Part shown: positions 4,354 to 37,065 of the stretch, piece by piece | Layout: every line of letters starts with the position of its first letter | Position numbering within the stretch: the first letter of the stretch is position 1 | Origin: Candidatus Woesearchaeota archaeon | Lineage (GTDB): Archaea; Nanobdellota; Nanobdellia; Woesearchaeales; GW2011-AR4 | Length of the DNA: 64,000 bases | Reading direction: 5' to 3' | Assembly (NCBI GenBank): GCA_016185755.1 | Contig: JACPMX010000010.1 | Coordinates: forward strand, 3,863-67,862 | Made by a program: the position numbers and the translations under genes | Notes under the pieces: model-generated | Databases searched by the model: none | What the model was told of the DNA's origin: nothing | The model's input: only the letters and a program-made list of their open reading frames with translations

Positions 4354-5475
4354 TTATGATATTGCCCTTACCTCCTGTCCTGTTTTCTGCTCGAGAGCGA
4401 CTGCCCTGTTGTACCTGTCAGTTCCGCAGCATTCGTAATGCCAAAGCTCTGCAGAATATCTTCTGAAGCCTGCCTTGTACATTACCCCTTCAAGCTCTTT
4501 CCAGTCTGCAACCGTCATTGTTTTTTTGAACCTGACATCAACGGCTTTTCCGCTCATGTGCGGGCATGAAGCAAGCCCCTTATTGGGATTGCAGACATAC
4601 TTTGCTCTTTCCGCATCAGTTGGGAATCTTTGCGCGTATTTTTCAGGAGTCCTTCCTTCCCACAGGTCTCTTTGCTCCTGCTCAGACCTGAAAGCTGAAT
4701 AAACCTCAAGTTCTTTCCCTTTTTCCTTTGCAATCCTTTGCGCATCGGCTGCTTTTTGGTAAGCTTCTAATGTCAGCCTGCATTTGATTCCTTTTGCGCA
4801 CAAATTCTCGTCGCTAAAGTCCTTGAAGCCTGAAATCTCCTGCAGAGTGGGCATCTGCTCCGGGCCGATTATTCTTTTCTCTTCTTTGGGAATTCGCTTC
4901 AGCGTCTCTTCTTTCTTCTTTATGCTTTCATCCTTCAGAATCTCAAATTTCAATGGATCTTTCGAAATACCGATAATTTCTGTGCTGCCCCTTATGTCAT
5001 AGATATAGTTGTTAAGCTGGATTTCTGAAGGGTAATTGGCAATGTATCCGCTGAATTTTTCATTGAACTGCAGCTCAAGGTTTAATTTTATTTTATTCTC
5101 GCTGAAGCAGTCAACACCTTTGTCATTCCATAGGAAATAGCCGTAATATTTTCCGCACTCTTTAATTGGAGAATGCAGGGTTGGGTGCTCTCTTGGAGTC
5201 AGGATTTCGCTTGCATAAACCTCGCTTAATCCCCCGTCTCTCGCAAGGTCGTAAACTGCCTGCTGCAAAGAATACTTTGCTGACTGGTCGATGTAAAACA
5301 AGGCTCCCTCGGCTTTCATGTAAACTTTGAGCAGTGTGAATTGCCTGTCTCCGATCGGGGAGCTGGAAAACGTCCCTGTCTTTGACAAAAGAACAATAAA
5401 CAAGTAAATCAGGATTAATGATGACAGAATAACCAGTAAAGGCAGGAAAAAAAATGATGCTTTTTTATTTTTCAT
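4354..5475 (-). CDS. membrane-anchored peptidase M15 (VanY / D-Ala-D-Ala carboxypeptidase-like) domain protein
   Basis: 373 aa. N-terminal TM segment. C-terminal domain has CPHMSGKAVD (the H-x2-G-x-A-x-D zinc-ligand motif) and ELWH (E-x-x-H), the VanY/M15 signature. Confidence 0.6.
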   Translation of the reverse strand: MKNKKASFFFLPLLVILSSLILIYLFIVLLSKTGTFSSSPIGDRQFTLLKVYMKAEGALFYIDQSAKYSLQQAVYDLARDGGLSEVYASEILTPREHPTLHSPIKECGKYYGYFLWNDKGVDCFSENKIKLNLELQFNEKFSGYIANYPSEIQLNNYIYDIRGSTEIIGISKDPLKFEILKDESIKKKEETLKRIPKEEKRIIGPEQMPTLQEISGFKDFSDENLCAKGIKCRLTLEAYQKAADAQRIAKEKGKELEVYSAFRSEQEQRDLWEGRTPEKYAQRFPTDAERAKYVCNPNKGLASCPHMSGKAVDVRFKKTMTVADWKELEGVMYKAGFRRYSAELWHYECCGTDRYNRAVALEQKTGQEVRAIS

Positions 5476-6935: not shown

Positions 6936-7724
6936 CTAATGAGTTGTTCCTTGAGCGCCAGCACCGCCAATAGCTCCGCCGCTTGGCTTAAAATCGCTTT
7001 TTTTGTTTAATTCTCCGATTACAATGAAAATATTTTCCCCTTCCCTGATTTTGTCAAGAGAAACCTGCTTTATTCCCCAGCTGCTGCGCCAGAAGCCGCC
7101 GCATATTCCGTAAAGCACGAGATAATTGTAGCTGGGCCACCTGTTCGAGCTCGGCTTGGCATTGGCTTGGGTGCCGAAAAAATTTGAGTCTCTTGTTGAT
7201 GCCAAAAAGACTATTTTTTCTTCGAATGGCTTGCACTTTACCGGTGCTGCATCCCCTTTAAGGTCAAAATCATTTCCAGACCAGTCTGTTATGCCGCCTG
7301 TGTTTTGGTAGATGCACAGGCATGACTTTGACTGGCATAATTTCGGCCTTGATGTAATTATGCTTTCCCCTGTGCATTCTGTCCTAACCCCATTATCATT
7401 ATAGCTAAAGCCCGCAAGTATGTAGTCATCTGTAATGCTGTACACTGTTGTTTGTGTTGTCACAGCTTTTCTGTCGTTTGCAAGCTCTTTTACCCTGTTT
7501 GACAATGCCTCAAGGTTATTAACTGTTGACTGGTACTCCTGGCCGCTGAGAAAAAGGCCGCTGAGCCTTAAGATGTAATAAAACAATACAGAAAGTATTA
7601 TTATTCCAGCTATAATCTCGATCAGAGTCCATAAAGAAAGGTCTATTATTGATCTTTTGCCTTTGAAAAAAGGTATTTTTGGCATTTCATACCTTGGCAA
7701 CAGGTGCGGCACCGCCTTCAACAC
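6936..7724 (-). CDS. N-terminally anchored secreted hypothetical protein
   Basis: 262 aa. KGKRS then LWTLIEIIAGIIILSVLFYYIL, a pilin-like N-terminal helix. Gly-rich C-terminus. Confidence 0.4.
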   Translation of the reverse strand: MLKAVPHLLPRYEMPKIPFFKGKRSIIDLSLWTLIEIIAGIIILSVLFYYILRLSGLFLSGQEYQSTVNNLEALSNRVKELANDRKAVTTQTTVYSITDDYILAGFSYNDNGVRTECTGESIITSRPKLCQSKSCLCIYQNTGGITDWSGNDFDLKGDAAPVKCKPFEEKIVFLASTRDSNFFGTQANAKPSSNRWPSYNYLVLYGICGGFWRSSWGIKQVSLDKIREGENIFIVIGELNKKSDFKPSGGAIGGAGAQGTTH

Positions 7725-8118
7725 ATCTTCGGTCGCTTGTCATGACAAAATTATCGCAGTCCCTTGCAATCTTGTCATTGTCATTTTTATCGCAGCTTCT
7801 TGGCACATCATCACCATCGCCGTCATGAGTAACATCATTATTCTTGCATCCTGCATCAGAACATACACACGGGTCGCAGTCATCCTTAAGCCCATCTCCA
7901 TCCCTGTCATTGGATTGTGTTAGTACCAATCCCCTTTCCATTGCCCTTTGGGTGTCAAATCCGCATCTCGCGAGCGCTGCCTTGTAAAGCTCAGAAGCGG
8001 TTATTCTTGCAGCTTCTGAGGTAGGCCTTCTTATGAGATTAGTGCCTGTAATCAGGACGAGCACTCCTAAAACAAGCAGTACTATAAATCCGATTCCAAT
8101 AGCCTTTTTATTCATCAT
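7687..8118 (-). CDS. pilin-like protein with thrombospondin-type-3-like Ca-binding repeats
   Basis: 143 aa. N-terminus MMNKKAIGIGFIVLLVLGVLVLI looks like a class III signal. DRDGDGLKDDCD and HDGDGDDV are Asp-rich Ca-binding loops. Confidence 0.55.
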   Translation of the reverse strand: MMNKKAIGIGFIVLLVLGVLVLITGTNLIRRPTSEAARITASELYKAALARCGFDTQRAMERGLVLTQSNDRDGDGLKDDCDPCVCSDAGCKNNDVTHDGDGDDVPRSCDKNDNDKIARDCDNFVMTSDRRCVEGGAAPVAKV

Positions 8119-10682: not shown

Positions 10683-10964
10683 CTAAGTGCAGCAGCACTT
10701 CTTCCTTACGCCGTCAACAATGACGGAGTAGCCCGGCAATGGAGGCCTTCCTGAGCCGCAATCTGTTGCTGTCTCATCAGTTGCTGATCCGTCTGCATAT
10801 CCTGCTGACTTACAAGCCTGCTTGCAGTCAGTCGCCTCTGAAAGGCCTTTGCTGAAAAGGCCGAGCCTGCCTGTGAAAATCATGAAAAGGACGACAAGAA
10901 CGGCAAGCGCAATGGCTGCTATTATTATCACATTGATGGAAATGCCCTGTGCTTTCTTGCGCAT
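10683..10964 (-). CDS. class III signal peptide (pilin-like) protein, Cys-rich
   Basis: 93 aa. MRKKAQG/ISINVIIIAAIALAVLVVLF. C-terminus KKCCCT. Nearly the same prepilin-like leader as the 8120-8374 product. Confidence 0.6.
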   Translation of the reverse strand: MRKKAQGISINVIIIAAIALAVLVVLFMIFTGRLGLFSKGLSEATDCKQACKSAGYADGSATDETATDCGSGRPPLPGYSVIVDGVRKKCCCT

Positions 10965-11031: not shown

Positions 11032-11502
11032 TCATCCGCAAATGTCGAGTTTTGTGTACATAGTGGCTGTGCTTATCGGTATAGGGAACAGCTTTGACCT
11101 TTTCTCAGCCCCGCACTTCTTTCCGAGCTTTATGAGCGGCTGGTTTGCATCAGTATATGCCAGAAACTCGTACTCCATGTTCCACTTGTCAAATGTGCTC
11201 TCAAATATTTCCTTGGATACAGCCTCTACAAACCTGCATGAATCCTGGCCGTTGTCGCACACTACGCTTCTCGCCTGGGCGCAGTCCTGCAGCAACTCTG
11301 TCATTGTAAGCTGCGAGCAGTCCTTGGCAGCTGTCTTCAGCAGGGTGCTCAGCATATTGGATGCCGTCTCTGAGCTTACGAAGCCTTTCCTGTATTCTGT
11401 AGGGGCCTTGACAACCAGAAACCTGACAACAAAGACTGCAGCCACAAGTATCAAAACAACCACTATGGCCAATCCAAGTATCTCCATCTGGGCTTTTCTC
11501 AT
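11032..11502 (-). CDS. class III signal peptide (pilin-like) protein
   Basis: The ORF track extends to 11631. I place the start at the internal Met, giving MRKAQMEILGLAIVVVLILVAAVFVV. That start abuts the stop of the upstream gene at 11499-11501, so the two are coupled. Confidence 0.5.
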   Translation of the reverse strand: MRKAQMEILGLAIVVVLILVAAVFVVRFLVVKAPTEYRKGFVSSETASNMLSTLLKTAAKDCSQLTMTELLQDCAQARSVVCDNGQDSCRFVEAVSKEIFESTFDKWNMEYEFLAYTDANQPLIKLGKKCGAEKRSKLFPIPISTATMYTKLDICG

Positions 11503-12011
11503 TTTGTCATGGTCTCTATAGTCATTATGCCGAACCCGTGCCTTCTTGCAGCCGGGTCGTATATTGAAATCGGGACATTTGTAACAAACTTGCTCTTGAA
11601 GTCGCTTGTTTTCCTGGAATATAGGTTCCATCTGGCTTCATTCGGGTATATCTGCACTATGCTTACGTTGCTGTACTCAAGCAGGTCATAGTAATAAATC
11701 TCATTTTGCTTCATGAGGCTTTGCGCAGGATCAAGCTTCATGATATCAACGCAGTTGTCAATTATTATATTGTCCCCGCTGCACTGGACTTCAGGCAAAA
11801 ACATCACTCTTTGCGCTATGCCGACAGACTTGAGCTGGGACAGCTCTTCCTTTTCAAGCTCTATATTGCTCTTGATGACTTTTACATAAAAAATGAATCC
11901 TATGATTATCAGTATGAAAAATACGAACAGGACCGCTATAGTCTCCCCTATCTGGATTTGTGATTTAGTAGATAAGGGTGCACGAGTATATCTGCGCATT
12001 CTTGTTTTCAC
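11499..12011 (-). CDS. N-terminally anchored pilin-like protein
   Basis: 170 aa. KSQIQIGETIAVLFVFFILIIIGFIF hydrophobic helix follows a basic N-terminus. Confidence 0.45.
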   Translation of the reverse strand: MKTRMRRYTRAPLSTKSQIQIGETIAVLFVFFILIIIGFIFYVKVIKSNIELEKEELSQLKSVGIAQRVMFLPEVQCSGDNIIIDNCVDIMKLDPAQSLMKQNEIYYYDLLEYSNVSIVQIYPNEARWNLYSRKTSDFKSKFVTNVPISIYDPAARRHGFGIMTIETMTK

Positions 12012-12960
12012 CTGCCAGAATCTTTGCCGATTCTGATATTATATCTGCATTCTCCTTGTTAAAGTCAGGAGCTGCGAGGATTCTGTTTAATTGGGTTAGT
12101 GCACTGTTATAGAATTGGTTGCACTGAACTTGCCTGCTTGAAGTGCCGCTTTGGACAAGTTTCTTTGTCCTTTCAGCGTATATTTTAGTCACAAGGTTGA
12201 GCTTCAAAAATGCATTTTGCATGCTGCATTCATAAGCCTCCAGGGTGTCAGAGTATACTGCAGCAACCAGGGAATTTCTGCCGATATAAATAGAGCTGCC
12301 TCTAGAAAGCCATGAGTTCCCGTTTTTTTGGTAGAATTCTACAGCCCCTTTTTCTGCATCGCCAATAACCCTAAGGGAAGTAACATCCTCATCGCGCATT
12401 TTTCCCAGCGAGCTTGGAAGAGGAATCATTTCCTCAAAAGCCACGATCCTTACCTTGTAGTTGTTGGCATTTACTATTGGGGCAGCTGTTTGATAAAATT
12501 CCTTATTAAGCTCTGCAGGAAGGGTCTTGTTTATCTCCCTTGCAAGGTTGGTATTGCCTATGATTATGTACCTTGCCCCTGTGCTTGTGGCATAAAGAAG
12601 GTTTGTTGCCCTGTACGGCGCGTTGAAAGACAATGTCTGTGTTGTTATCCTGCTTCCCCTGATGGAGCCAGGCGCAAACAAAATAAGGCTCTGGTATTGT
12701 TTTGACACTCCGCCTATTGATATCCTGCCGCAGCCTACATCAATATCCGATTCCGGTATGTTTACTGTGTTTATAGTGTCAGAGCTTATGCCTGCCCCGG
12801 TTATTATGGCTTCTATGCTCTTGAGCACAGCTGCCTTTGTGGATGTTTCTGACACGCTTTTCTGCTTTGCAACTACAACAGTGAAAAAAAGAAGTATGGC
12901 GGCGCCTGCAACCAGCACGAAAAGCCAGTTGAACTGCACTTCAAATCCTTTCTTGTTCAT
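11965..12960 (-). CDS. class III signal peptide (pilin-like) protein, large
   Basis: 331 aa. MNKKG/FEVQFNWLFVLVAGAAILLFF: the G-F junction with an acidic residue at +2 resembles bacterial and archaeal prepilins. Confidence 0.55.
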   Translation of the reverse strand: MNKKGFEVQFNWLFVLVAGAAILLFFTVVVAKQKSVSETSTKAAVLKSIEAIITGAGISSDTINTVNIPESDIDVGCGRISIGGVSKQYQSLILFAPGSIRGSRITTQTLSFNAPYRATNLLYATSTGARYIIIGNTNLAREINKTLPAELNKEFYQTAAPIVNANNYKVRIVAFEEMIPLPSSLGKMRDEDVTSLRVIGDAEKGAVEFYQKNGNSWLSRGSSIYIGRNSLVAAVYSDTLEAYECSMQNAFLKLNLVTKIYAERTKKLVQSGTSSRQVQCNQFYNSALTQLNRILAAPDFNKENADIISESAKILAGENKNAQIYSCTLIY

Positions 12961-12969
12961 TTTGAAAAG

Positions 12970-13458
12970 CTAATTCCATTGCCCCAGCGAAGCATGATTC
13001 CCCTTTCCCTCCAGTTTCAGGCTTATTTTGCCGTTTAAAGCCTTTATGCACAGCACGTCCGGCTCGACAGATATCTTTCCGGCAAAAAATGATTCTTTGG
13101 CTATGTTCTCAACAAGAAAAACATTCTTTCCAGTGCTGGAGAGTATGCTGTCTTTGATTATAGGATCAATGCTGCCCGGAATGTTGGGGCTTTCAAAACT
13201 CTCGACAAAGCATGCCTGCGTATAGCCGGAGCATAATTGAAGGTCTTTTCTCTTTACGCTTCCGAAATCGCTGGATATGCTTTCCACTGCATTCTGCAGG
13301 TCGTTCTTGAACTTGAGGCAGGACACCTGTTCAGCCCTGTTCTTGAAGTTCTGGACTGCGTTATAGCCGTAGACCAGTATGAAAGATATGAGTATTATCG
13401 TCAGTATGTATATGAACACCTGGCTGTAGATTTGCGCCTTGGATTTTTTCGCTGCCAT
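12970..13458 (-). CDS. class III signal peptide (pilin-like) protein
   Basis: I place the start at the internal Met, giving MAAKKSKAQ/IYSQVFIYILTIILISFIL. That start lies 1 nt after the stop of the 1692-aa gene. The longer ORF would overlap that gene by 125 nt. Confidence 0.5.
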   Translation of the reverse strand: MAAKKSKAQIYSQVFIYILTIILISFILVYGYNAVQNFKNRAEQVSCLKFKNDLQNAVESISSDFGSVKRKDLQLCSGYTQACFVESFESPNIPGSIDPIIKDSILSSTGKNVFLVENIAKESFFAGKISVEPDVLCIKALNGKISLKLEGKGNHASLGQWN

Positions 13459-13459
13459 A

Positions 13460-16400
13460 TCATTTTTTTCTCTTGGATTTTGATTTGGCAAGCTCGTAAA
13501 GTTTTCCAATATTGTCCTTAGGTTTTGCGCTTGGCTGCCTTTGCTTGTCTTTTTTTGCAATCTGGGCAAGTTTTGAGATAGCATCCTCTTTTGGCTTCTT
13601 TTGCTCGGGTTTTTTTGTTTCCTTGCTCTCTTTTGGCTGCTCCTTTATGGTTTTTTCCGCAGCTCTAGGTGCGCCGAACGGCTCGAAAAGCTTTGCTCTT
13701 TCCTGCTCTTTCTGCTGCTCTTTCTTTTTTAATGCTTCCCTTATATTTGCATCTTCCTGCTTTTGGATTGTTTGCTTCGCCTGCTGCTGCGGCTGGAAAA
13801 TAGGTTTTGGGTGCTCCTCCCCCTTTGGCATTTCAAATTTTTCTGCTTTTCTTTTGGTTATTGCTTTATGGGCCAGGTATCCAAATCCTGACAGCAGGAG
13901 AATTATCCCTATGGCAAATGCCAATACCTTGGCGAAGCTTGATTTTGGGAAATCGTCAGGGTTTACAGGGCTTGTTCCTGCGTCAATTTCTTCCTTGTCT
14001 GTAAAGCTGTCTTTGTCTGTGTCTGCAGCGTTTGGGTTGGTGCTTTCGCCATAAGTCCTTTGTACATTAAACTCTTCAAGATTTGTAAGCCCGTCAGAAT
14101 CCGAATCCAGCCCTGAATCATTCGGATTATTTGGGTCGAAATTATTTTTAATTTCCCATTCGTCAGGAATTCCGTCGCCGTCAGTGTCTTTTATTCCTGC
14201 GCTTTCCTGCTCGTCAGGAATTCCGTTGCAGTTTGCATCGTTGCTCTGGCACCTTTTGCACGCAGACAGTATGCACTGCAGGCCCTCTCCGCAGTCCTCG
14301 TTAATGCCGCAGCTCTTGTCTTCAGGGCACTTGGATGGGCAGTGCCCTCCGCAGTCAACATCTGATTCGCCCGGGCTTAGCTTGCTGTCGGAGCAGCTTT
14401 CCTGCGGCTTGCAGAATCCAAAGCTGCAGAATCCGCTGTCGCAGTCGTTGCTGCTTGAGCATGCCTTGTTGATTTCGCATTTTCTGCATTGCCCTCCGCA
14501 GTCAACATCGCTTTCTTCCTGATTTTTTGCATTGTCGTCGCATTTTGGGGCTGAGCATATTCCGCTGTTGCAGAAATTCGATACGCAGTCGCTGTTTATC
14601 GAGCATTTTTTGCCTGTGATGCACAAGTCGCATCCGGAGCCGCAGTCCACATCCGGCTCTTTTTCATCTTTTATGCCGTTTGTGCAGTTGAGGGGCTTTA
14701 GGCTTGTGTCCACGGTTATTCCGTCGCTCTCGCTTATATTGCTCGATAGCCCGGCAATGTTCTGCGCCTTGACCCTGAAGAGATACCTGTTGCCGTTCAG
14801 TAGCCCCAGGCTCGTCCCGTTTGGCCTTGTTGCTATTACATATTCATTATTAAGCAGGCTTTTGGTATTATTTAGTACAACTCTTGATGTTCCAGATTCA
14901 ACAATAGAGTAAACATGGGAGATGACTCTGGATTCATTGTCTATGCTGTTCCATTTGACCCTGAGTACATCAGTGCTGAAAGTGAATTCTGGCTTGTCCT
15001 GGAGTGAGCTGCTGTCATTGATGGATAATATTGCCGGCGGGGTCAGGTCTATTGTAAATTCAACCTGCTTCACATCAGAGAATTTCTGCAGGAACTGGTC
15101 CTTGCATACAACATAAAAAGTGTGCTTTCCGGCAGTTGAGCTCAGCTGCCTTGTATGGCTGTATCCGGGCGCTCCAAATATGTCGCCGTTCTGCGCTGTA
15201 TTGTCTGTCTCGGAGAATTTGCATTGTGATTTCTTGTTTGTCTCTATGGCAAGTATAGCACTTGTTGAATTGAAAAATTCCGGCGTATGGGAGATTATTG
15301 AAATTGGAATTGTCAGATCAATCTTGATTTGCACCTCTTTTGCATCTGAAACAAGCTCTGCCCTGTTTTCGCATGCTATGAAGTATGTATGGCTGCTTCC
15401 ATTCCCGGCAGTTATTGGCTGCCTGCTGATAAGCTTGAAATTTCCCTCATCAAATCCCTCAAATTTGCCCTCCATATTGGCAAATTCCTTTGTGGTGGTG
15501 CTGAACTTGCACCTGACAGGCTCGTCCGATTCGACAGCAAACGCAGTTTCAAAAGGCTCCTCAATGATGGGATTTGGGAATGCAAATGCGCTTTTCAGCT
15601 GCGGAATTGTCGGGTCAACGTTAATATCAAACGACTTGAATGTTATGCCCTTTTGGTCTTTGCATCTTATGTTAAGCTTGTGTGCATTTGCATCTCCGCT
15701 CGCTATCTTGCTGAAGCCCAGTATTGTATGGATTGTTCCTGAAGTGTTTGTGAAAGGCTCCATGAACTCGAACTCGAAATTATTGTCAAGCGAGAATCTG
15801 CAGGATGCGTCATTGTCTGTTTCAGCGACAACATCAAAGACTGATTTGGGCGCGACTCCAAACCTCGGCTTTAAAAGGCTGATTACGCCGGGGTTTGCGT
15901 CAACCACAAATGAAACAGAGCCAGTGGCCCTGTTCCTGGCAAAGTCGCTTGCTGTGACCTCAAGATTTTTGTTCCCGTCAGAAATGTTCAAAGTTGCTGT
16001 GAATGCCTTGTTGTCTATAGTGGAAAAAGACTGCTTTATCTCCTCAGAGTTTATCTTGGCTGATTCCAGGCTGACTTCCTTGTCGAATGCAAGCTTTATA
16101 TTTACCGCCGAGGTGTTGACTATGCTGCCGTCAGGGGGGGTTATTTCAAGCAGCGGCTTGCTGTTGTCTATGACTATTATCTGGGATACTGCAGGGTCCA
16201 TGAATATGTTGTTTTTGTTTTTTGCATCCAGCTCTAGCGTGTACTCCCCATTCGGCAGTGTTTCTGCGACCGAAAATGACGCCTTTATATTCAGCTCAGC
16301 GCCGGCCTGCAGGGTGACGATCAATCCTGTTTTTTTGTTCACAAGCCTTGAGTGGGTTATTGCTGCAGGCTCGAAAAACTGCACGTCTATGGCCGGCTTT

Positions 16401-18538
16401 TGATTGCTTGTGAATATTTTGTCAAGGGCTTTTAGGCCGTCTGTCACATTGATGCTCAATATTCTCGGCCCGCCTGTTGTGCTGTGGGCTTCTATCAGCA
16501 GTTTTTTTGCCTCTCCGATGTTTTTTGCAGGGTCTTGGGAATAATACCTCAGTACATTTGTGCCTTCGTTCAATGTGGCAAGCTTGTCCCCGTTGCTGCC
16601 GTCAAAAACATTGAGATTGCTTACTATGGCAATCCTGCCTGTAGTTGAAGTGTTGTAAGGGTGCCCGCCTGCACCGCAAGGCTCGATGCAGAAAAAAGTA
16701 GCGTAGTCCTGCGATGTCTTTAGTATTACGGAGCTGTTGATGCTCGTCCTGTCGTAAATCTGTATGATAAGGCTGTCTATTATCCCTTTCTTGATTATCG
16801 GGAGCAATGTGGTGTTTGGGGCAAAGAAATCAGCCTCGCATGAGCTTGTTGTGCAGTCAGCTTTTGCGTCTCCGTCCGCGTTCTTGGAGCAAGCGCTGTT
16901 TATATTCTGGCATACTTTTATGCCGCACTCATCAAGTGACGGGTTTGTTATCCTGTTGTTTTCGTCATGAGTTATTTGTGCATTGCTGCACTGCTCTGCA
17001 TCATAGTCTTTGCACACTACCTCCTCGCAGTTTTTTGATTTTCCGTTGCGGAAATAGCACATGAAGCTGCCTTCAGATAACGCGTTTGATTTTTCCCTTG
17101 TGCAGAAGTCAAAAACCTCGTTAAATGACCTTAAGTTTTCCAAAGATTGCGTTCCCTTTTCCTCGCACCACTGGCAGTTGTATTCTGTTGTGCTTACGCA
17201 TGCCCCTATCCCGATCTGCTCGGCCAGTTTCTTCCACTTGCAGCCGCCGACCCTGCAGTTGTCCCTGCCGCATGCGTCTTCTGTCTTGTAGTCATAGCAG
17301 CCCATTGAGGGATCGCAGCCGAAGCATGAGTTTACAGCAGAGTGCGACCTGTCATAAAAACAGTACCTGTTTGATTCGCAGTCGTCAAGATTGTAAAACA
17401 GCCCAAACGGGTTCGCTGCATTGTAATTGCAGCTGACCTTGCTCAGGCATGAAGGCTTGTTGTTGCTCACAATGCATATCTGTGTTGGCAGGCATGCCGT
17501 GCCCTCTGCTATGAGCCTGTTTGAAGCGTCGCAGGAGAATGCCTTGTTGAACTTATCGCTGAATTTGTTTTTCACGCCCTGCTGGAAATTTTTTAGGAAT
17601 AGCTCGGGGAAGTTTGTGTTCAGGTAATTACTGTATCTTGTATAGTATGATTCATGTATGCAGAAATTGTTGCTTGCAGGATGGTCCATGCATTCTACAT
17701 TGCCCAATGTGGATGTTTTTGTTATTGTGGGGGTTGCGGTCTGCAGGTTGTACCTTGCCTTGATTTGGTAGGTGTATGTTGTGTCAAACATCAGGTCTCC
17801 TGAAGAGTCCTCAAAAGAATTTGTGTTTGTTATTCCTGCCATAGCGAAGTTTGTGCAGCCGCTGTCCTTGCACCTCATCACATCATATGAGACTGCATTG
17901 CTGCTGCACTCGTCTTTCCATTTAAGCTGGAATTTTTTTTGCCCTTTGGCCGGGATTATTTCAAGATTGCTCAGCTTTGGCAGGTAGCTTGGATTGCTGC
18001 ATCCTACTCCTTCAATAGAGCAGCTCCCCCCTGATTCAGCGCTGTCTGCAGGGCTTGTACACCCAAAATCACCTCCTTCAAAATCAGCGCAGCCATTATT
18101 GTCGTTGTCTATTCCGTCGTTGCACTGCGGCACCGGGCAAACCTGGTTGCAGTTTGTCTGGCCTTTGTTGAACGTCAATCCAGTTCCTTTGCACTGGGCT
18201 TCCGGGGCAATCGAGCCGCCGAGCTCTGAGCAGCAGCAGCCAAGAGAGCACGCGTCAACAGCCAGGCATGCCTTGTTTGGGAAAAAGAATGTTGTTGAGC
18301 AGTCATTGTAGTTTGCAGGTCCATCGGGATTTTGCTGCGACTTGTAATATCCCGGGAAGCTTGTTTCAGGCTTTGGGCAGCATTCTTTGTCCCTTAAAGC
18401 AAGCCTGTCAGCGGAGCATGCAAGCTGGCCGGCACCGGGATTGCTGCAGCATCCAACTTCATCGGCATAAACAGCCTGCAGGCTAATTAAAAATAAAAAA
18501 GCTGAAAATACAATCGCCTCTTTTTTTAATCTTGTCAT
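13460..18538 (-). CDS. giant Cys-rich type I membrane surface protein (adhesin-like) with thrombospondin type 3 Ca-binding repeats
   Basis: 1692 aa. Sec signal peptide MTRLKKEAIVFSAFLFLISLQAVYA. Three repeats of about 95 aa ending in IDLT(I/P)P. Three Cys-rich modules each opening DVDCG(G/S)xC. TSP3-like DTDGDGIPDEWE, DSDSDGLTNLEE and DTDKDSFTDKEE. C-terminal TM VLAFAIGIILLLSGFGYL, then a Lys/Glu/Gln-rich tail of about 130 aa. Confidence 0.8.
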   Translation of the reverse strand: MTRLKKEAIVFSAFLFLISLQAVYADEVGCCSNPGAGQLACSADRLALRDKECCPKPETSFPGYYKSQQNPDGPANYNDCSTTFFFPNKACLAVDACSLGCCCSELGGSIAPEAQCKGTGLTFNKGQTNCNQVCPVPQCNDGIDNDNNGCADFEGGDFGCTSPADSAESGGSCSIEGVGCSNPSYLPKLSNLEIIPAKGQKKFQLKWKDECSSNAVSYDVMRCKDSGCTNFAMAGITNTNSFEDSSGDLMFDTTYTYQIKARYNLQTATPTITKTSTLGNVECMDHPASNNFCIHESYYTRYSNYLNTNFPELFLKNFQQGVKNKFSDKFNKAFSCDASNRLIAEGTACLPTQICIVSNNKPSCLSKVSCNYNAANPFGLFYNLDDCESNRYCFYDRSHSAVNSCFGCDPSMGCYDYKTEDACGRDNCRVGGCKWKKLAEQIGIGACVSTTEYNCQWCEEKGTQSLENLRSFNEVFDFCTREKSNALSEGSFMCYFRNGKSKNCEEVVCKDYDAEQCSNAQITHDENNRITNPSLDECGIKVCQNINSACSKNADGDAKADCTTSSCEADFFAPNTTLLPIIKKGIIDSLIIQIYDRTSINSSVILKTSQDYATFFCIEPCGAGGHPYNTSTTGRIAIVSNLNVFDGSNGDKLATLNEGTNVLRYYSQDPAKNIGEAKKLLIEAHSTTGGPRILSINVTDGLKALDKIFTSNQKPAIDVQFFEPAAITHSRLVNKKTGLIVTLQAGAELNIKASFSVAETLPNGEYTLELDAKNKNNIFMDPAVSQIIVIDNSKPLLEITPPDGSIVNTSAVNIKLAFDKEVSLESAKINSEEIKQSFSTIDNKAFTATLNISDGNKNLEVTASDFARNRATGSVSFVVDANPGVISLLKPRFGVAPKSVFDVVAETDNDASCRFSLDNNFEFEFMEPFTNTSGTIHTILGFSKIASGDANAHKLNIRCKDQKGITFKSFDINVDPTIPQLKSAFAFPNPIIEEPFETAFAVESDEPVRCKFSTTTKEFANMEGKFEGFDEGNFKLISRQPITAGNGSSHTYFIACENRAELVSDAKEVQIKIDLTIPISIISHTPEFFNSTSAILAIETNKKSQCKFSETDNTAQNGDIFGAPGYSHTRQLSSTAGKHTFYVVCKDQFLQKFSDVKQVEFTIDLTPPAILSINDSSSLQDKPEFTFSTDVLRVKWNSIDNESRVISHVYSIVESGTSRVVLNNTKSLLNNEYVIATRPNGTSLGLLNGNRYLFRVKAQNIAGLSSNISESDGITVDTSLKPLNCTNGIKDEKEPDVDCGSGCDLCITGKKCSINSDCVSNFCNSGICSAPKCDDNAKNQEESDVDCGGQCRKCEINKACSSSNDCDSGFCSFGFCKPQESCSDSKLSPGESDVDCGGHCPSKCPEDKSCGINEDCGEGLQCILSACKRCQSNDANCNGIPDEQESAGIKDTDGDGIPDEWEIKNNFDPNNPNDSGLDSDSDGLTNLEEFNVQRTYGESTNPNAADTDKDSFTDKEEIDAGTSPVNPDDFPKSSFAKVLAFAIGIILLLSGFGYLAHKAITKRKAEKFEMPKGEEHPKPIFQPQQQAKQTIQKQEDANIREALKKKEQQKEQERAKLFEPFGAPRAAEKTIKEQPKESKETKKPEQKKPKEDAISKLAQIAKKDKQRQPSAKPKDNIGKLYELAKSKSKRKK

Positions 18539-19719
18539 ATTCTATTGACAGTTACTGTCTGGTAATCCGAAAGGCTGCCGTCGCTGGCTTCGACCCTGAA
18601 ATTGATTTGCGGAATTTCAAGTTTTTTCGGCAATGAGGGGGTTATGGTGAAAGTAATGTTGTCCTCGTCAGGATCCTCCGCCTTCAGCCGGTAATTATCT
18701 AAAAGATCATCTTGTTTTATTTCAAAATTGTGCGGAAATTCAAGTGTGCCCTTCCTTATGTAATAAAGTGCCGGCATCCTGTTCCTCCTTGCAAAAATAT
18801 ACTCGAGCGGCTTTCCGTAAACCAGTGATTTGGCATCTTCTACAATTATGATGTCATCATTGGAAATTTCATTTTTCCTTGTTTTAACTTCAAAAAAATC
18901 CTTGCTGTTTTTTGCATCGCTTATGTCAAATTTTATGTTTTTGATGTCGTTTTCAATCAGCTCTTTCGAAAAAAAGTAAAGGTCCCTGAGCCTTACGCCA
19001 GCATTTGCCGAGAATTCATTCATCTCCGCAAGCTCATTTGTTGCAGGGTTCCTTATTGTTATGGGCATTTTTGTCCTTATGCTGACATCGCCGCTTCCTA
19101 TAGTCACTTCTGTCTTCGAGGGCTGCACCTCAATTTCCAGGCCCTGTTTTTCAAAAGGCTCAAGATTAGCGCAGCTTTCCATGTTCTTGTCAATGAATGA
19201 TTCTATCTGCACCTGGATTGAGTTTGGCCCCTCGGAAGAGTTCAGCGGCGGCATGTTGCTTATCCCGAAAAACCCGTCAAAAATTTCTGCATTTGAAGCT
19301 GCTGTCCTGTAAGGGAATGCCGCCCATGGATAGTCCGGGGCATCTGATGCGTACGGCGCCACCGCAAATTTTGGAGGTAAAATATTATATGCCACTTTGA
19401 AATTGTTGTGGTTGGCAAAAAAAATTCCCTCGTCAGTATCCTGGTAGTCGACCAAAGTTCCGCCCTGGCTCGCATATATGTATCCCCCCTGCCTGCCGAG
19501 CAAAATTATCGCGTCCTTTGCAAGCTTGTCAATGCATTTTGCGGCAAATTCCTTGATCGGCTGCACTTCAGCTGCTGCGTCCTGCGTCCTTTTTATGTTC
19601 TGCTGGCTTTGCTTCCTGACAGCCGATTTTGACAGGTACAGGGCAAGGCTGATCGCGATGAAAATAACCAGGCCTACAATGAGCAGCATCGTGACCTGTG
19701 ACTTCAGCTTCAGCCTCAT
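18535..19719 (-). CDS. N-terminally anchored secreted protein
   Basis: 394 aa. TM VTMLLIVGLVIFIAISLALYL. Overlaps both neighbours by 4 nt. Confidence 0.6.
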   Translation of the reverse strand: MRLKLKSQVTMLLIVGLVIFIAISLALYLSKSAVRKQSQQNIKRTQDAAAEVQPIKEFAAKCIDKLAKDAIILLGRQGGYIYASQGGTLVDYQDTDEGIFFANHNNFKVAYNILPPKFAVAPYASDAPDYPWAAFPYRTAASNAEIFDGFFGISNMPPLNSSEGPNSIQVQIESFIDKNMESCANLEPFEKQGLEIEVQPSKTEVTIGSGDVSIRTKMPITIRNPATNELAEMNEFSANAGVRLRDLYFFSKELIENDIKNIKFDISDAKNSKDFFEVKTRKNEISNDDIIIVEDAKSLVYGKPLEYIFARRNRMPALYYIRKGTLEFPHNFEIKQDDLLDNYRLKAEDPDEDNITFTITPSLPKKLEIPQINFRVEASDGSLSDYQTVTVNRI

Positions 19720-22097
19720 TTCAACCTCAGCTTTGAAGTCAAATCAGGCCATATTGTCTCGGGATTTATATTCGTGAACTGGCTGCCCTGGACAAGAACA
19801 TAATAATTGTTTCCTTCTTTCTTGCACGATATTCCTGATGACACATCTTTCTTCGCCTCGCTGAACTGGTCCAGGAAATTGCATACATCCACGTCAAAGC
19901 CCGAGTATTCAATAACTGCATTCTTGAACCTTGCCCCTTCTATTGTTCCCTTTATTGTCTTGCCGCTGTCCTGTGAGATATAGAGCTTGTCAAATTTATT
20001 TACTCCTTTTAGGTATGACTCGTCAAATGGCGGGGTTGTCACGAGCCTTTTTATTGAATCTATTATATTCCTGATGGGGCCGCCTATAAGCTCGCTGAAA
20101 GGGCCGGATGAATCCTGCCCGGAAGGCACTGTTATTGCGCTTGCGCTGTAGATGAGGCTCTTAAGCTTCTTGTTAAACCACACCTTGTTCGTTGGGTCGC
20201 AAGGGTGGTACTGGCCGTCATCAATCAGGGCATCATCGCAGCTTTCCACTCCGAATATGTTCAGGCTGTCCCCTGTGATTTCCGACAGGTTTTTGTTTAT
20301 GGATGTGGCTGCCGCTATTTTGCTGCCGGTTTTCAAAACGCAGAAATTATTTGATTTGAGGCTTGACAGGATATTTGTTGCTGCAGCATTGGATTCAGTG
20401 AGGTACTGGAGGTCGTTAAGCGTGTTTTCCTTGTTGTCGCAGGAAAGCGCAAAGTCGCCGCTCTTCATTTCCAGCAGCTTCATGGCCAGCAATTTTGTCC
20501 TTGTGGACCATGCTCCGTTCTCGCAGAAATTATCGTCAAAATAGTCTCCTGATTCCAGGCATTGTGTTCGTTCCTCTTTTCCAAAAACATTTGCAAGGCA
20601 TTGTGATTTCTTCGGGCAGAATCCTGAAGCCCCGTCATCAACAGTAAATCTAAGCTCCGATTCTGTCCACTCGCCGTCAATGCACCTGGAGTTTGCGCCT
20701 GTCGGCTGCGCCAATGGATCGTCTCTTTGGTTTTCGGCGCATTTTTCACCATCCCAGCATTCTTCTGCAGCGCAGCAGTCTGCGGCTTGCTTTGGATTTT
20801 GGACTGGTGCAAAGCTGACATGCGCCTTGTCCGTGCCGTCAGTTTGCATCCATTTTTCAGTGTATGAGCAATAATAGTTTTTTCCCGGGTCATTGAAGCA
20901 GTATTCGTGGTTTGTTATCAATGCTGCTCCGGTATGCTTGTCAGCGAGGCTCGATAAGCCGTCATTATTCTTATTGAAATTATTTTTATCAACTGCGCAG
21001 CCATGGAATTCCCCGTTGAAATTCACAACAGACTCTTCGGTGCCTTCAACAAAAGAAACACTTATGACTGGCTTCTTGTCAAAGCATCCGCCTGTCCCTC
21101 CAATGTCATTATAGTTCTCCCCAGGGTCATCATCCTCGCTGCAGCATTTTGTGCCAGTCCATGTGAACCCTGCCTTCTCGCATGTTGCCTTGTTTTTTCC
21201 TATTAGTGTCTTATCTTTGATTTGTGAATTTGGAACATCCAAATCAGTGACAAATTTCCTGTCTGAGCGGCAGTAATAGGTTTTTGCATCATTTGTTGAG
21301 ACTGCATTTGCCGTTATTTCATTTGCAACAGCATTGCCTGTGATTTCATCACGATTTGCAATGGTTTTTTGGGCTGCCTCGTTCTCGGATTTCTCCGGGT
21401 TTACAGATTGCCCTGTTGAGAGCCTTTTCCCGTCAACCCTTGATTTGCATGAGCCGTCGCCGCAGCATTCTACAACTGATTCCCTTCCTTTTCCGATGCA
21501 TACGTACTCGCTGTTACCGATTGTTCTTCTCCAGAATGTGCCGTCGCACTTAATCCAGTTGACTCCGTCAGACAGGTATTCTATTCCTGCGCAGCCTACA
21601 AACCTTATATCCCCCAAATTCGGGGTTGAAGGCAGCCATTGCGCAGATTCTGCGTTTGAATCTATATTGCACAATACCCCTGAGCTTACCTTGCCGCAGT
21701 CTTCTGCATCGTCGCCGCAGCATTTTGCCTTTGCGTTCCAGTCTGTTCCGGCAATGCAGTTGCACGCGCCGCTTGAGTCATCAGGATTGCTTTCCTGAGG
21801 CACTGACTCTGAAACGCCTCTGCAGTCGCAGCCATCGCCTCTTTTGCACTTATTTTCCGGAAGAAAATATCCAAAATCTGCTGGGCCTAATTCTCCGAAT
21901 CCCGCTTTTGCGTCGCCTGTTTTATAGCAGCCTGCGCTCTGTACCGGGCATGGAGGTGGAGGTGGCGGACTTCCCCCTCCTCTTCTTCCCCTTCCTCCCC
22001 CTGCCTCAGCGAAAATTGAAAAAGATGCAAATAGTATTATTGCAATGCATAAGATAGAATAAATCCTAGAACACGTATTATTCTTGCTGCCCGTCAT
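19716..22097 (-). CDS. Cys-rich secreted protein
   Basis: 793 aa. Signal peptide, then a GGGRGRRGGGSPPPPPPCP linker. More than 50 Cys. No C-terminal TM. Confidence 0.7.
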   Translation of the reverse strand: MTGSKNNTCSRIYSILCIAIILFASFSIFAEAGGGRGRRGGGSPPPPPPCPVQSAGCYKTGDAKAGFGELGPADFGYFLPENKCKRGDGCDCRGVSESVPQESNPDDSSGACNCIAGTDWNAKAKCCGDDAEDCGKVSSGVLCNIDSNAESAQWLPSTPNLGDIRFVGCAGIEYLSDGVNWIKCDGTFWRRTIGNSEYVCIGKGRESVVECCGDGSCKSRVDGKRLSTGQSVNPEKSENEAAQKTIANRDEITGNAVANEITANAVSTNDAKTYYCRSDRKFVTDLDVPNSQIKDKTLIGKNKATCEKAGFTWTGTKCCSEDDDPGENYNDIGGTGGCFDKKPVISVSFVEGTEESVVNFNGEFHGCAVDKNNFNKNNDGLSSLADKHTGAALITNHEYCFNDPGKNYYCSYTEKWMQTDGTDKAHVSFAPVQNPKQAADCCAAEECWDGEKCAENQRDDPLAQPTGANSRCIDGEWTESELRFTVDDGASGFCPKKSQCLANVFGKEERTQCLESGDYFDDNFCENGAWSTRTKLLAMKLLEMKSGDFALSCDNKENTLNDLQYLTESNAAATNILSSLKSNNFCVLKTGSKIAAATSINKNLSEITGDSLNIFGVESCDDALIDDGQYHPCDPTNKVWFNKKLKSLIYSASAITVPSGQDSSGPFSELIGGPIRNIIDSIKRLVTTPPFDESYLKGVNKFDKLYISQDSGKTIKGTIEGARFKNAVIEYSGFDVDVCNFLDQFSEAKKDVSSGISCKKEGNNYYVLVQGSQFTNINPETIWPDLTSKLRLK

Positions 22098-26090: not shown

Positions 26091-26131
26091 CCATGCAAGA
26101 TATTTAAAGGGCAAAAACAAAGTTGGTGATC

Positions 26132-28156
26132 ATGGAAATAAATGCTATAGAGCAGATAAAGAGGTTCCAGGAATTTATAGACAGCAATTACTATAATTCG
26201 CTGCTCGAGAATGCAAGGAAAGGGACCAAGTCGCTGCTTATAGATTTCTCGGAGCTTTCAAAATACGACCCTGATTTGGCTACAGAGCTCCTTGATTCCC
26301 CGGAAGAAACCATAAAGGCAATTGAAAAATCGATTGAGCAGTTTGACGTCGACGGCCTGGCAGATTTCAGGATCCGGTTTAATAACCTGCCCCTGACCCA
26401 GCATGTAATGATAAGAGACATCAGGAGCAAGCACATAAACAGGCTTCTCTTTATAGAAGGGCTGATAAGGCAGAAATCCGATGTAAGGCCCCAGGTCACA
26501 TCTGCAAGGTTTGAATGCCCTATGTGCGGCAACATAATGAATGTGCTGCAGCTTGAAGGCACATTCAAGGAGCCGACAAAGTGCGGCTGCGGAAGAAAAG
26601 GGAAATTTATCATGCTTGACAAGGATCTTGTTGATGCCCAGGGCATCGTGCTCGAAGAGGCTTCTGAAAATTTGCAAGGAGGGGAGCAGCCGAAGCGCAT
26701 AAGCGTTCTTCTGACAGACGATCTTGTCAGCCCGTTGAGCGAGAAAAGGACTTCTCCGGGGAGCAAGGTGCAGGTTTTTGGAATTGTGAAGGAAGTGCCT
26801 ATTATATCAAAATCCGGGGCAAAATCAACAAGGTTTGACCTGATGATTGATGCCAATTACATACAGCCGACAGAAGACACTTTTTATGAAGTCAATATAA
26901 CTGAGGATGAAGAAAAGCAGATTCTCGAAATTGCAAACGATCCTAAAGGCTACGACAAGTTGGTGAACTCGATTGCCCCTTCAATTTATGGCTATGAAAA
27001 GGTAAAGGAAGCTTTATTGCTCCAACTGATGGGCGGTGTAAGAAAAACAAGGACAGACAGCGTGGTGAGCAGGGGTGATATGCATATTTTGCTGGTTGGC
27101 GACCCTGGATCTGGAAAATCAGCATTGCTGAAAAGAATAACGCAAATTGCGCCAAAAGGCCGCTATGTGAGCGGAAAAGGGGTTAGCGGTGCGGGCATTA
27201 CGGCAGCTGTTGTAAGGGACGAGTTTTTGAGGGGATGGGCATTGGAAGCCGGTGCAATGGTCCTCAGCAGCGACGGCCTTGTGTGTGTTGACGAGCTTGA
27301 CAAGATGAGCTCTGAAGACAGGGCAGCTATGCACGAGGCTCTTGAAAATCAGACTGTCAGCATATCAAAGGCAAACATACAGGCCACCCTGATAGCAAGG
27401 ACTACCGTGCTTGCGGCAGCCAATCCGAAATTTGGAAGATTTGATCCTTATGGGGTTATTGCAGACCAGATTGACTTGCCTCCGACATTGATCAACAGGT
27501 TCGACTTGATATTTCCGATAAAGGATTTGCCAGAGGAAACAAGGGACGAGAGAATGGCAAAGCATATCCTTACATTGCATCAGAATCCTGACATACAGGA
27601 GCCTGAGATATCGACTGATATTTTGAGGAAATTCGTGGCTTATGCAAGGCAAAGAGTCTCTCCAAAGCTGACAGAAGGGGCTTTGGAAGAGATAAAGGAA
27701 TTTTACTTGAAGATGAGGAGAAGCGGCAGCGGCGGGGAAAGCGGCATACATGCAGTGCCTATTTCTGCAAGGCAGCTTGAGGCATTGGTCAGGCTGAGCG
27801 AGGCATCTGCAAGGTCCAGGCTGGATGACAGGGTTACAAGAAGGGATTCAAAAAAGGCAATAGAGCTTCTTGATTATTGCCTGATGCAGATTGGGCTTGA
27901 CAAGGAAACCGGAAAGATAGACATAGACAGGCTTGCAACCGGAATAGCTGCAACACAGAGAAGCCACATAATGGTTGTCAAGGACATCATAGGCGAGCTT
28001 GAGGTTAAGCTTGGAAAATCAATTCCTGTAGAGGAAGTTTTTGCCGAGGCAAGAACAAGGAACCTGGACGAGGACAAGGTGGAGGAAGCCCTTGAAAGGC
28101 TGAAGCGTTCGGGTGACATTTTTGAGCCGAAAAGGGGATTTTTGAGCAGGATATAA
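26132..28156 (+). CDS. mcm: MCM replicative helicase
   Basis: Zn finger CPMCGN...CGCG. Walker A GDPGSGKS. Walker B CVDELDKM. Arginine finger region. C-terminal winged helix. The track start at 26123 is TTG, so I use the ATG at 26132. Confidence 0.95.
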   Translation: MEINAIEQIKRFQEFIDSNYYNSLLENARKGTKSLLIDFSELSKYDPDLATELLDSPEETIKAIEKSIEQFDVDGLADFRIRFNNLPLTQHVMIRDIRSKHINRLLFIEGLIRQKSDVRPQVTSARFECPMCGNIMNVLQLEGTFKEPTKCGCGRKGKFIMLDKDLVDAQGIVLEEASENLQGGEQPKRISVLLTDDLVSPLSEKRTSPGSKVQVFGIVKEVPIISKSGAKSTRFDLMIDANYIQPTEDTFYEVNITEDEEKQILEIANDPKGYDKLVNSIAPSIYGYEKVKEALLLQLMGGVRKTRTDSVVSRGDMHILLVGDPGSGKSALLKRITQIAPKGRYVSGKGVSGAGITAAVVRDEFLRGWALEAGAMVLSSDGLVCVDELDKMSSEDRAAMHEALENQTVSISKANIQATLIARTTVLAAANPKFGRFDPYGVIADQIDLPPTLINRFDLIFPIKDLPEETRDERMAKHILTLHQNPDIQEPEISTDILRKFVAYARQRVSPKLTEGALEEIKEFYLKMRRSGSGGESGIHAVPISARQLEALVRLSEASARSRLDDRVTRRDSKKAIELLDYCLMQIGLDKETGKIDIDRLATGIAATQRSHIMVVKDIIGELEVKLGKSIPVEEVFAEARTRNLDEDKVEEALERLKRSGDIFEPKRGFLSRI

Positions 28157-28157
28157 A

Positions 28158-29618: not shown

Positions 29619-29753
29619 AGCCGTTTAACTTAAATGGCCAGTTTATATATTTTTTGAATTGCCAGTTTTGCCATCAAAATGTGAGCATCTTAAAGCTGGA
29701 AATATCCAGCAAAAAGGAAATTGCAATGGGAATTTTTGCCTTAAAGAAAATGT

Positions 29754-29771
29754 TTACATGCGAACCGATGG
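29754..29771 (+). promoter_or_regulatory. degenerate ORB-like element TTACATGCGAACCGATGG (14/18)
   Basis: Shares TT-CATGCGAA--GA-GG with the 18-mer. It lies 49 bp upstream of the aIF2-beta start. Confidence 0.3.
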
Positions 29772-29819
29772 CAAAACCGAACTGATATGTAGGTTTTTCA
29801 ATTAACTTTATAAATAAAC

Positions 29820-30251: not shown

Positions 30252-30268
30252 GGGATTTAATTTTAGAA

Positions 30269-34310: not shown

Positions 34311-34312
34311 TT

Positions 34313-35806: not shown

Positions 35807-35807
35807 T

Positions 35808-37013: not shown

Positions 37014-37017
37014 GCTT

Positions 37018-37035
37018 TTCCATGCGAAATGAAGG
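37018..37035 (+). promoter_or_regulatory. ORB-like element TTCCATGCGAAATGAAGG (copy 1 at cdc6)
   Basis: Identical 18-mer to 25138-25155. It resembles an archaeal origin recognition box of the TCCA-N4-GAAATGAA type, as I recall the consensus. It lies immediately upstream of the cdc6 start. Confidence 0.6.
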
Positions 37036-37065
37036 TATTTAAACATTTCCTTTACTCTCGCTACC

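Follow-up and report, generated by a model that had tools for sequence, protein, structure and literature searches.

Woesearchaeota are abundant DPANN archaea whose partners and attachment mechanisms are unknown, and we know of no cultured member of the lineage. The 64,000-nucleotide stretch of Woesearchaeota DNA analysed here (the window) raises this matter in concrete form, since its open reading frame (ORF) at 13460..18538 on the minus strand runs through 1692 open codons and specifies a cysteine-rich protein of 1692 amino acids (aa), here called the giant protein. What kind of molecule is this, with which other gene products does it belong, and what might it do for the cell? Judged from its sequence, the ORF is an intact gene for a predicted giant type I membrane protein, with a Cys-rich ectodomain that carries Ca-type loops and with a Lys-rich cytoplasmic tail. 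The main new result relative to an earlier note on this DNA is that the gene lies third in a conserved seven-gene pilin-like cluster, and we tentatively propose, with a confidence that stops a little short of an even chance, that its product may be a stalk or adhesin subunit, anchored in the membrane and stabilised by disulfides and Ca, of a conserved pilin-associated surface apparatus of Woesearchaeota.

The earlier note had described a giant Cys-rich ORF with a Sec signal peptide, three tandem repeats of about 95 aa, three modules of the type DVDCG(G/S)xC, TSP3-like Ca-binding loops and a single C-terminal transmembrane (TM) helix, and had predicted positional orthologues with a variable number of repeats; all of these were recovered, whereas its statements on the tail and on the recurrence of the loops in a second protein stood in part.

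An intact gene in a family of variable length

The window is archaeal in its gene content (RadA, RPA, RNase P p30, MCM, PolD, Cdc6, and a ribosomal protein/SecY block), and a protein identical to the giant protein is on record as HYX08_04005, a hypothetical protein from a Candidatus Woesearchaeota metagenome-assembled genome (MAG). Its composition is marked by 84 Cys, 137 Lys, 161 Ser, and 131 Asn. An ORF of this size could in principle arise from misassembly or from smaller genes joined by a frameshift, and one MAG does carry the orthologue broken into pieces of 1068 aa and 559 aa. A search of 5.8 billion proteins, however, returned 76 homologues, 31–73% identical to the giant protein and nearly all full length, of which more than 70 are collinear over their full length with an alignment occupancy near 1.0; they come from more than 70 independent contigs of different samples and keep the same domain order. 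The split copy is thus an exception, probably a sequencing frameshift in that assembly, and an artefactual origin, effectively refuted by these collinear homologues, is left with a negligible probability: this is a single intact gene. The names that the homologues bear in their sources are without exception those of hypothetical proteins of Woesearchaeota, Nanoarchaeota, or Nanoarchaeia, and a literature search found no paper that describes the family or the gene cluster.

The homologues range from 1.6 to 3.5 kaa (thousand aa), and their cysteine content follows their length: those of about 1680 aa have almost all exactly 84 Cys, those of about 2000 aa have 118–120, and those of about 2700 aa have 191–204. 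All insertions in the longer homologues map to reference residues 1279–1305, at the start of the Cys-module array described below, and consist either of extra DVDCGG modules (19 in homologue P0138) or of a second kind of module, CGNxxxDxGExCDG, that recalls DUF4215. In homologues of about 2000–2700 aa the added modules are weakly DUF4215-like (18.6 bits in P0054; cut-off 27 bits), and the DUF4215/Myxococcus-type repeat itself (CGNGxxDxGExCDDG) is absent from the giant protein. Positional orthologues with variable repeat numbers thus exist, in the form of collinear loci whose Cys-module arrays differ in length.

A profile of the N-terminal head, run against 1.84 billion cluster representatives, matched 318 proteins at E<=1e-30, among which certain FN3-array proteins align through the FN3 part alone; ten representatives were checked, and all named ones belong to Woesearchaeota. 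A viral origin of the giant protein was considered and rejected on the grounds that matches in IMG/VR were limited to a short Asp/Cys motif, with no other relatives of the protein found there.

Anatomy of the giant protein

The domain layout was read from AlphaFold2 models built with family alignments (pLDDT 82.7 for residues 1–590 and 76.8 for residues 1160–1692), together with profile and fold searches, and the signal peptide and topology were assigned by rule from sequence. The N-terminus, MTRLKKEAIVFSAFLFLISLQAVYA|DE (residues 1–25, 18464..18538 on the minus strand, as for all features of the protein), reads as a Sec signal peptide with an n-h-c layout and an AxA-type site: its hydrophobic stretch starts at about residue 7, it ends in ...VYA|DE, the junction A|DEVGCC is conserved among homologues, and AlphaFold2 renders it as a low-confidence helix.

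Behind the signal peptide lies a head of two Cys-rich domains with an FN3 domain between them. Domain A (residues 26–185, 17984..18463) contains 19 Cys, all invariant or nearly so, and the motif QCNDGIDNDNNGCADFEGGDFGC, and is modelled with a blockwise pLDDT of about 69–92. FN3 domain a (residues ~186–280, 17699..17983) was recognised by fold search. Domain B (residues 281–572, 16823..17698), a mixed alpha/beta domain with 28 Cys, many of them invariant, is modelled at a pLDDT of mostly 76–95 and bears the motifs NPFGLFY, YCFYDRS, CYDYK, and KNADGD. Neither A nor B has a relative in the PDB by sequence profile or a family in Pfam or NCBIfam, and neither appears among the listed fold matches, which are almost entirely of FN3 type and come from a search in which the two domains were not run separately.

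The motif QCNDGIDNDNNGCADFEGGDFGC itself (residues ~137–159, 18062–18130) recurs in proteins of Myxococcota, Peribacteria, Patescibacteria, and others, where matches show 40–65% identity over about 35 residues; probably it is a small metal-binding motif of wide occurrence.

The rod that follows begins with three putative Ig-like beta-sandwich domains (residues 573–884, 15887..16822), for which family support is confined to about residues 758–884, residues 573–757 being assigned from the layout. Three Pfam matches fall below threshold in the giant protein, namely Big_3_3 at 758–814 (25.4 bits) and Big_13 at 836–880 (16.6 bits), both with a cut-off of 27 bits, and Glucodextran_B at 795–880; among the homologues, P0054 and P0138 score above the Big_13 cut-off, with 40.3 and 28.4 bits, and these segments are probably Ig-like. 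Next come the tandem repeats R1–R3 of about 95 aa (residues 885–1166, 15041..15886), with two Cys each, which profile-profile alignment shows to be mutually homologous (R1 885–976, R2 977–1076, and R3 1077–1166; hhalign probability 94–98%, E 2e-7 to 5e-13); the segment 796–884 also aligns with 1077–1166 at a probability of 87%. FN3 domain b (residues 1167–1282, 14693..15040) is modelled at a pLDDT of 87–96, with Foldseek matches to FN3 domains at E 6.6e-6 to 1e-3 and a profile match to a titin FN3 domain at E 1.7e-11. The FN3 fold, a seven-strand beta-sandwich superposable on solved FN3 domains, is thus recognised in the giant protein, and both FN3 domains are new relative to the earlier note.

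The stalk closest to the membrane is built of small motifs. Three Cys-rich modules (residues 1283–1438, 14225..14692; 26 Cys; pLDDT 82–92) follow the pattern E(S/T)DVDCGGxCxxC...C..N.DC.S..C....C, opening with DVDCGSGC at 1296, DVDCGGQC at 1344, and DVDCGGHC at 1393 and containing 8 Cys per 43-residue window. The module has no family in Pfam or NCBIfam, and its best PDB profiles, Dumpy DPY (E 0.033) and Dickkopf-1 (E 0.5), do not place it with EGF, Dickkopf, or DPY modules, and it is absent from the listed fold matches; together with head domains A and B it brings the sequence families added here that have no Pfam or NCBIfam model to at least three.

A second large secreted Woesearchaeota protein, of 1608 aa (locus L005, 3740–8566) and with neither a C-terminal TM helix nor a tail, shares with the giant protein an N-terminal CC.NP domain and arrays of DVDCGG modules, from which it appears that these modules are shuffled among secreted proteins of the lineage.

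Between the Cys modules and the membrane lies a Ca-binding-type region (residues 1439–1535, 13934..14224), in which three TSP3-type loops of the form DxDxDGxxDxxE span 1451–1517, DTDGDGIPDEWE at 1451, DSDSDGLTNLEE at about 1478, and DTDKDSFTDKEE at 1506. Their positions are nearly invariant within the family. TSP3_bac (PF18884) scores 20.5 bits (E 4.2e-4) on the giant protein, below its cut-off of 25, and 35.2, 46.7, and 52.1 bits in homologues P0138, P0043, and P0054; TSP3_bac, like Big_13, is thus recognised at the level of the family, through homologues. In profile comparison the region is also similar to Bap and to a Ca-binding domain, that of binary toxin B. Counted by block, with domain A and FN3 domain a pooled, the cysteines number 22, 28, 2, 2, 2, 2, and 26; all of these counts are even, which would be consistent with complete disulfide pairing, and the total of 84 is enough for up to 42 disulfides.

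The chain then crosses the membrane once. A Kyte-Doolittle window exceeds 1.6 at two places only, the signal peptide and a stretch at residues ~1536–1557 (13868..13933), which AlphaFold2 models as a helix from 1534 to 1563, and the flanking sequence HKAITKRK would, by the positive-inside rule, fit a cytoplasmic C-terminus. The predicted cytoplasmic tail (residues 1558–1692, 135 aa, 13463..13867) is indeed Lys-rich, as the earlier note held, whereas the share of about 40% K, E, and Q given there is an underestimate: residues 1561–1692 contain 25% K, 13% E, and 11% Q, or 49%. The tail is the least conserved region of the protein, with 31–40% identity to the reference versus 50–70% for the ectodomain, and what is conserved in it appears to be sequence motifs more than a biased composition. 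These motifs are ...IREALKKKEQQKEQERAKLFEPFG (1598–1622), EDAISKLAQIAKK (1651–1663), and IGKLYELAK (1677–1685), with the family consensus E.LKKKEEQK..ER.KLFE.FG and KEDVF.KLKEIAK, the latter in one to four copies, and they coincide with AlphaFold2 helices at 1592–1617, 1653–1665, and 1676–1691. A C-terminal TM helix followed by a Lys-rich tail of 65–350 aa is kept in 70 of 76 family representatives of at least 1400 aa. Sequence and model thus support binding of the tail motifs, either to the membrane face or to some conserved partner, and the conserved helical motifs and the retention of the tail lend indirect weight to the earlier idea of contacts between the tail and cytoplasmic partners. 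A role of the tail helices as membrane-binding amphipathic helices was dropped as evidence, their hydrophobic moments being mixed (0.29–0.61) and not decisive.

A conserved cluster of pilin-like genes

The core of the cluster occupies 11032–22097 on the minus strand and encodes, in order, proteins of 793 and 394 aa, the giant protein, and proteins of 162, 331, 166, and 156 aa. When the core proteins were compared by tblastn with 27 related loci (L001 and L003–L028, from NCBI, ENA, and GTDB species-representative genomes), the same core order was found in every contig that extends far enough: the core is collinear in at least 18 loci, and all four downstream partners are present in 18, at identities down to 23–30%. 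The gaps that were checked, those flanking the giant gene and the next two, are overlaps or at most 9 nucleotides (nt). On this genomic evidence the giant protein appears to be obligately associated, with a probable coupling by translation, with one secreted Cys-rich protein and five pilin-like proteins.

The 793-aa secreted Cys-rich protein comes first (19716..22097, minus strand) and overlaps the second gene by 4 nt; its relatives precede the giant gene, in collinear order, in about 20 loci, and it has no match in Pfam, NCBIfam, or the PDB. Past its signal peptide it has a Gly/Arg and then a poly-Pro stretch, GGGRGRRGGGSPPPPPPCP. The 394-aa protein (18535..19719, minus strand) has the class-III-like N-terminus LKS|QVTMLLIVGLVIF, and in 24 of the 27 loci its gene directly precedes that of the giant protein; its stop overlaps the giant start by 4 nt (ATGA), and it has no significant sequence-profile match in the PDB.

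On the other side, 1 nt past the giant stop, lies the gene of the 162-aa pilin-like protein (12970..13458, minus strand; SKA|QIYSQVFIYIL), which is collinear in 22 loci. The ORF listed here, 12970–13584 on the minus strand, has 204 aa and overlaps the giant 3' end by 125 nt; because the orthologues begin MKAQIYSQ..., the true start is probably Met43 (13458). The ORFs at 11032–11631 and 11499–12011 have a similar N-terminal over-extension. The fourth partner, a 331-aa pilin-like protein (11965..12960, minus strand; KKG|FEVQFNWLFVLVAG), is also collinear and has 187 homologues, all of them unnamed or hypothetical proteins of Woesearchaeota or Nanoarchaeota, with no PDB relative of the family by sequence profile. 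The core closes with pilin-like proteins of 166 aa (11499..11999, minus strand; TKS|QIQIGETIAVLF) and 156 aa (11032..11502, minus strand; RKA|QMEILGLAIVVV), the last of which is likewise collinear and scores 17.2 bits (E 0.0027; cut-off 20) against TIGR02537, the archaellin/type IV pilin N-terminal domain.

The pilin-like character of these proteins is a matter of their N-termini, in which five of the six partners show a short basic stretch, K/R-[GAS], usually a Gln, and a hydrophobic helix of about 20 residues, as in KS|QVTMLLIV, KA|QIYSQVF, KG|FEVQFNWLF, KS|QIQIGETIAV, and KA|QMEILGLAIV. By this pattern they carry what we take for class III (type IV pilin) signals, and a Gln at +1 is typical of EppA-processed pilins of Methanococcus. 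The pattern is seen by eye in about 22 of 25 partner orthologues from five divergent loci, and within the window class-III-like N-termini mark 14 of 17 cluster genes versus 2 of 48 other genes (Fisher p 1.2e-9). The giant protein itself lacks it and has the Sec-type signal instead. Pfam and NCBIfam scans of the cluster neighbours gave nothing for the core partners except the sub-threshold TIGR02537, and BLASTP found no homology between the giant protein and its neighbours.

Beyond the core the cluster continues with small pilins and other pilin-like genes. A 93-aa pilin-like protein (10683..10964, minus strand; KKA|QGISINVIIIAAIAL) is a candidate major subunit, and one to three paralogous pilins of about 90 aa follow the core in loci L001, L003, L004, and L006. 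A 143-aa pilin-like protein (7687–8118, minus strand), with a weak orthologue in L004 only, had been credited with the same TSP3 loops as the giant protein: it does contain one canonical DxDxDGxxDxxD loop, DRDGDGLKDDCD, whereas the second acidic loop is looser, and the Pfam scan made no call there. At the distal end a 373-aa protein (4354..5475, minus strand; KKA|SFFFLPLLVIL) combines a pilin-like N-terminus with a VanY/M15 peptidase (Pfam VanY 26.5 bits, Peptidase_M15 26.2 bits) whose zinc motifs HxxGxAxD (CPHMSGKAVD) and ExxH (ELWH) are intact; orthologues hold the same position in L001, L003, and L004, and a peptidase of peptidoglycan type in an archaeon suggests bacterial partners or their cell walls as its target.

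Proposed role, rival readings, and genomic setting

In the role that we propose, the giant protein would be exported by means of its Sec-type signal peptide and would present, from the membrane outward, the Ca-loop region, the three DVDCGG modules, FN3 domain b, the three repeats, the segment 573–884, and a head composed of domain A, FN3 domain a, and domain B. At an assumed ~4 nm per beta-sandwich domain, the rod would hold the head roughly some tens of nanometres off the membrane, and in relatives additional Cys modules would make it longer. A prepilin peptidase may process the pilin-like partners, which may then come together at the stalk, along it, or at its base, much as four minor pilins act in type IV pili of bacteria with PilY1, an adhesin that is not itself a pilin; the tail would fix the complex to a cytoplasmic or membrane-face partner and the whole structure would mediate contact with another cell or surface. 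The adhesin role is something we infer from architecture and neighbours; in this setting the giant protein, the pilin-like set, and the cell-wall peptidase together make a concrete candidate for an attachment machinery. Archaellin and type-IV-type genes are strongly expressed in situ in Woesearchaeota (PMC11606122).

Several points weigh against this proposal. The pilin status of the partners is given by their N-terminal pattern, save for two weak matches to TIGR02537; no type IV filament (TFF) ATPase, platform protein, or prepilin peptidase was found in the 64-kb window; and according to a groundwater study, components of type IV pili are lacking from the genomes of DPANN archaea (10.1101/2020.05.14.094862). 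Nor can a protein anchored in the membrane travel on the tip of a pilus in the manner of PilY1. The head, for which PDB profile and fold searches gave no functional clue, is among the best-conserved parts of the protein, which is unusual for a host-specific adhesin and suggests a conserved ligand or a partner protein from the cluster rather than a fast-evolving, host-specific adhesin tip. Finally, the function proposed here is read from sequence, models, and comparison.

The organism does appear to have standard prepilin-peptidase substrates, as a canonical type IV pilin, KKG|VSPLIATVLLIAFAV, encoded at 53068–53559 (minus strand), beside the SecY/ribosomal block and far from the cluster, passes TIGR02537 (28.1 bits, cut-off 20; UpsA-like, E 1.8e-8).

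Three other readings of the giant protein deserve to be weighed against that of a pilin-associated stalk or adhesin. Its large size, signal peptide, Ig/FN3 array, C-terminal TM anchor, wide occurrence in Woesearchaeota assemblies, and placement in a core genome region beside replication and RNase P genes would all suit a TM-anchored large glycoprotein that forms a cell wall or envelope scaffold, to which the neighbouring genes would be incidental. Tetrabrachion and haloarchaeal glycoprotein S-layer proteins have the same general layout, and tetrabrachion and SlaB combine, as the giant protein does, a signal peptide, an extended ectodomain, and a C-terminal TM anchor. We nevertheless consider an S-layer role improbable. 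Pfam and NCBIfam gave no match to an S-layer or PGF-CTERM family at E<=1, and where such proteins would end in a few basic residues past the TM helix, the giant protein has a tail of 135 aa; S-layer proteins do not characteristically have a long, conserved tail in the cytoplasm, and the Cys-rich composition and pilin-like operon also set the giant protein apart from tetrabrachion and SlaB. N-glycosylation sequons are not enriched (16 observed versus about 20 expected from composition), and translational coupling in a seven-gene pilin-like operon is more easily reconciled with a complex of fixed stoichiometry than with a lattice protein made in bulk. Moreover, Woesearchaeota MAGs have separately annotated S-layer genes, which are among their top transcripts (PMC11606122). 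A different possibility, and one to which we give somewhat less credence still, is that of a PilY1-like adhesin freed or pulled from its TM anchor and shown on a fibre of small pilins that is primed by four or five minor-pilin-like proteins. The logic of the operon is that of fimU-pilVWXY1E, in which several minor pilins accompany one large non-pilin with a Sec signal and Ca-binding sites; at the level of the operon the analogy extends to the pilin-like partners of the giant protein and the small pilins of about 90 aa downstream. A 2026 preprint, which reports TFF systems in some DPANN archaea and PilY-like adhesins in some archaeal TFF subsystems (10.64898/2026.04.22.720090), speaks for the same reading. 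The archaeal giant protein, however, matches no PilY1/PilC beta-propeller (Neisseria_PilC) at E<=1 in Pfam or NCBIfam, and no homology to bacterial minor pilins was detected for its pilin-like partners; the conservation of TM helix and tail in the 70 representatives points to permanent anchoring, and no conserved cleavage motif was seen between the Ca-loop region and the TM helix.

The tail is also central to the third alternative, a receptor for contact or mechanical sensing in which the TM helix would transmit a binding event or a pull at the head to an effector-recruiting tail. The sequence-conserved, predicted helical tail motifs and a type I layout like that of metazoan adhesion receptors favour it; integrin beta-type receptors, for example, likewise combine a head, an FN3/Ig rod, a stalk of modules with about 8 Cys, a single TM helix, and a tail with short motifs; this likeness is one of layout only, with no sequence or fold homology beyond FN3. 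Against a receptor stand a tail that Pfam and NCBIfam scans find to be devoid of any recognisable signalling domain or phosphorylation module, the absence of a kinase or regulator gene from the conserved cluster, and the low overall conservation of the tail, so that we hold this reading to be very doubtful. The giant protein itself exemplifies, in archaea, a receptor-like type I architecture with a motif-bearing cytoplasmic tail. A bolder extension of the proposed role as a stalk or adhesin subunit, which we regard as rather unlikely, is that the core, the small pilins, and the M15 peptidase build an undescribed archaeal surface organelle, a stalk of adjustable length that is stiffened by disulfides and Ca, has a type-IV-pilin-like base, is tied by its tail to the cytoplasm, and captures, and perhaps breaches, bacterial hosts; if this were true, the hosts of the lineage could be sought by means of the conserved head.

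Among known large surface proteins the giant protein has several partial counterparts. SPEARE proteins of Nanohaloarchaeota are giant surface proteins of host-dependent, ultrasmall DPANN archaea and are thought to mediate host contact; giant adhesin-like surface proteins of symbiotic ultrasmall archaea are already known as a kind, into which the giant protein fits, although it is smaller, belongs to another lineage, has a fixed position in a pilin-like operon, and shows no protease, lectin, or nuclease domain in Pfam or NCBIfam. With the bacterial adhesins Bap, SiiE, and LapA it shares tandem Ig-like domains and acidic Ca loops (weak Bap profile matches, E 0.018–0.038), whereas those proteins are secreted by type 1 secretion systems or anchored by sortase, have no cytoplasmic tail, and are not Cys-rich. 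The succession of small disulfide modules and then DxDxDGxxDxxE loops, with bacterial TSP3 recognised in homologues, recalls thrombospondin and COMP; the giant protein, however, has three loops of TSP3_bac type only, modules that are not of EGF type, and no thrombospondin C-terminal domain, and there is no evidence of common descent with thrombospondin. What distinguishes it, then, are the new head and module families, the variation in stalk length, the conserved tail, and the fixed place in a pilin-like operon, and these features also offer points of experimental access: the head could be used to fish for partner cells and the tail motifs for cytoplasmic partners, and the stalk-length variants amount to a natural experiment.

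The surface cluster lies within about 10 kb of a replication neighbourhood at 26123–37046, which comprises MCM, an OB-fold protein, both PolD subunits, and Cdc6/Orc1, and the same neighbourhood is found in loci L001 and L003. Records titled 'uncultured Methanosarcinales archaeon' (L008, L010, L011, L015, L016, and others) carry the full cluster in the same order, and these titles are probably taxonomic mislabels.

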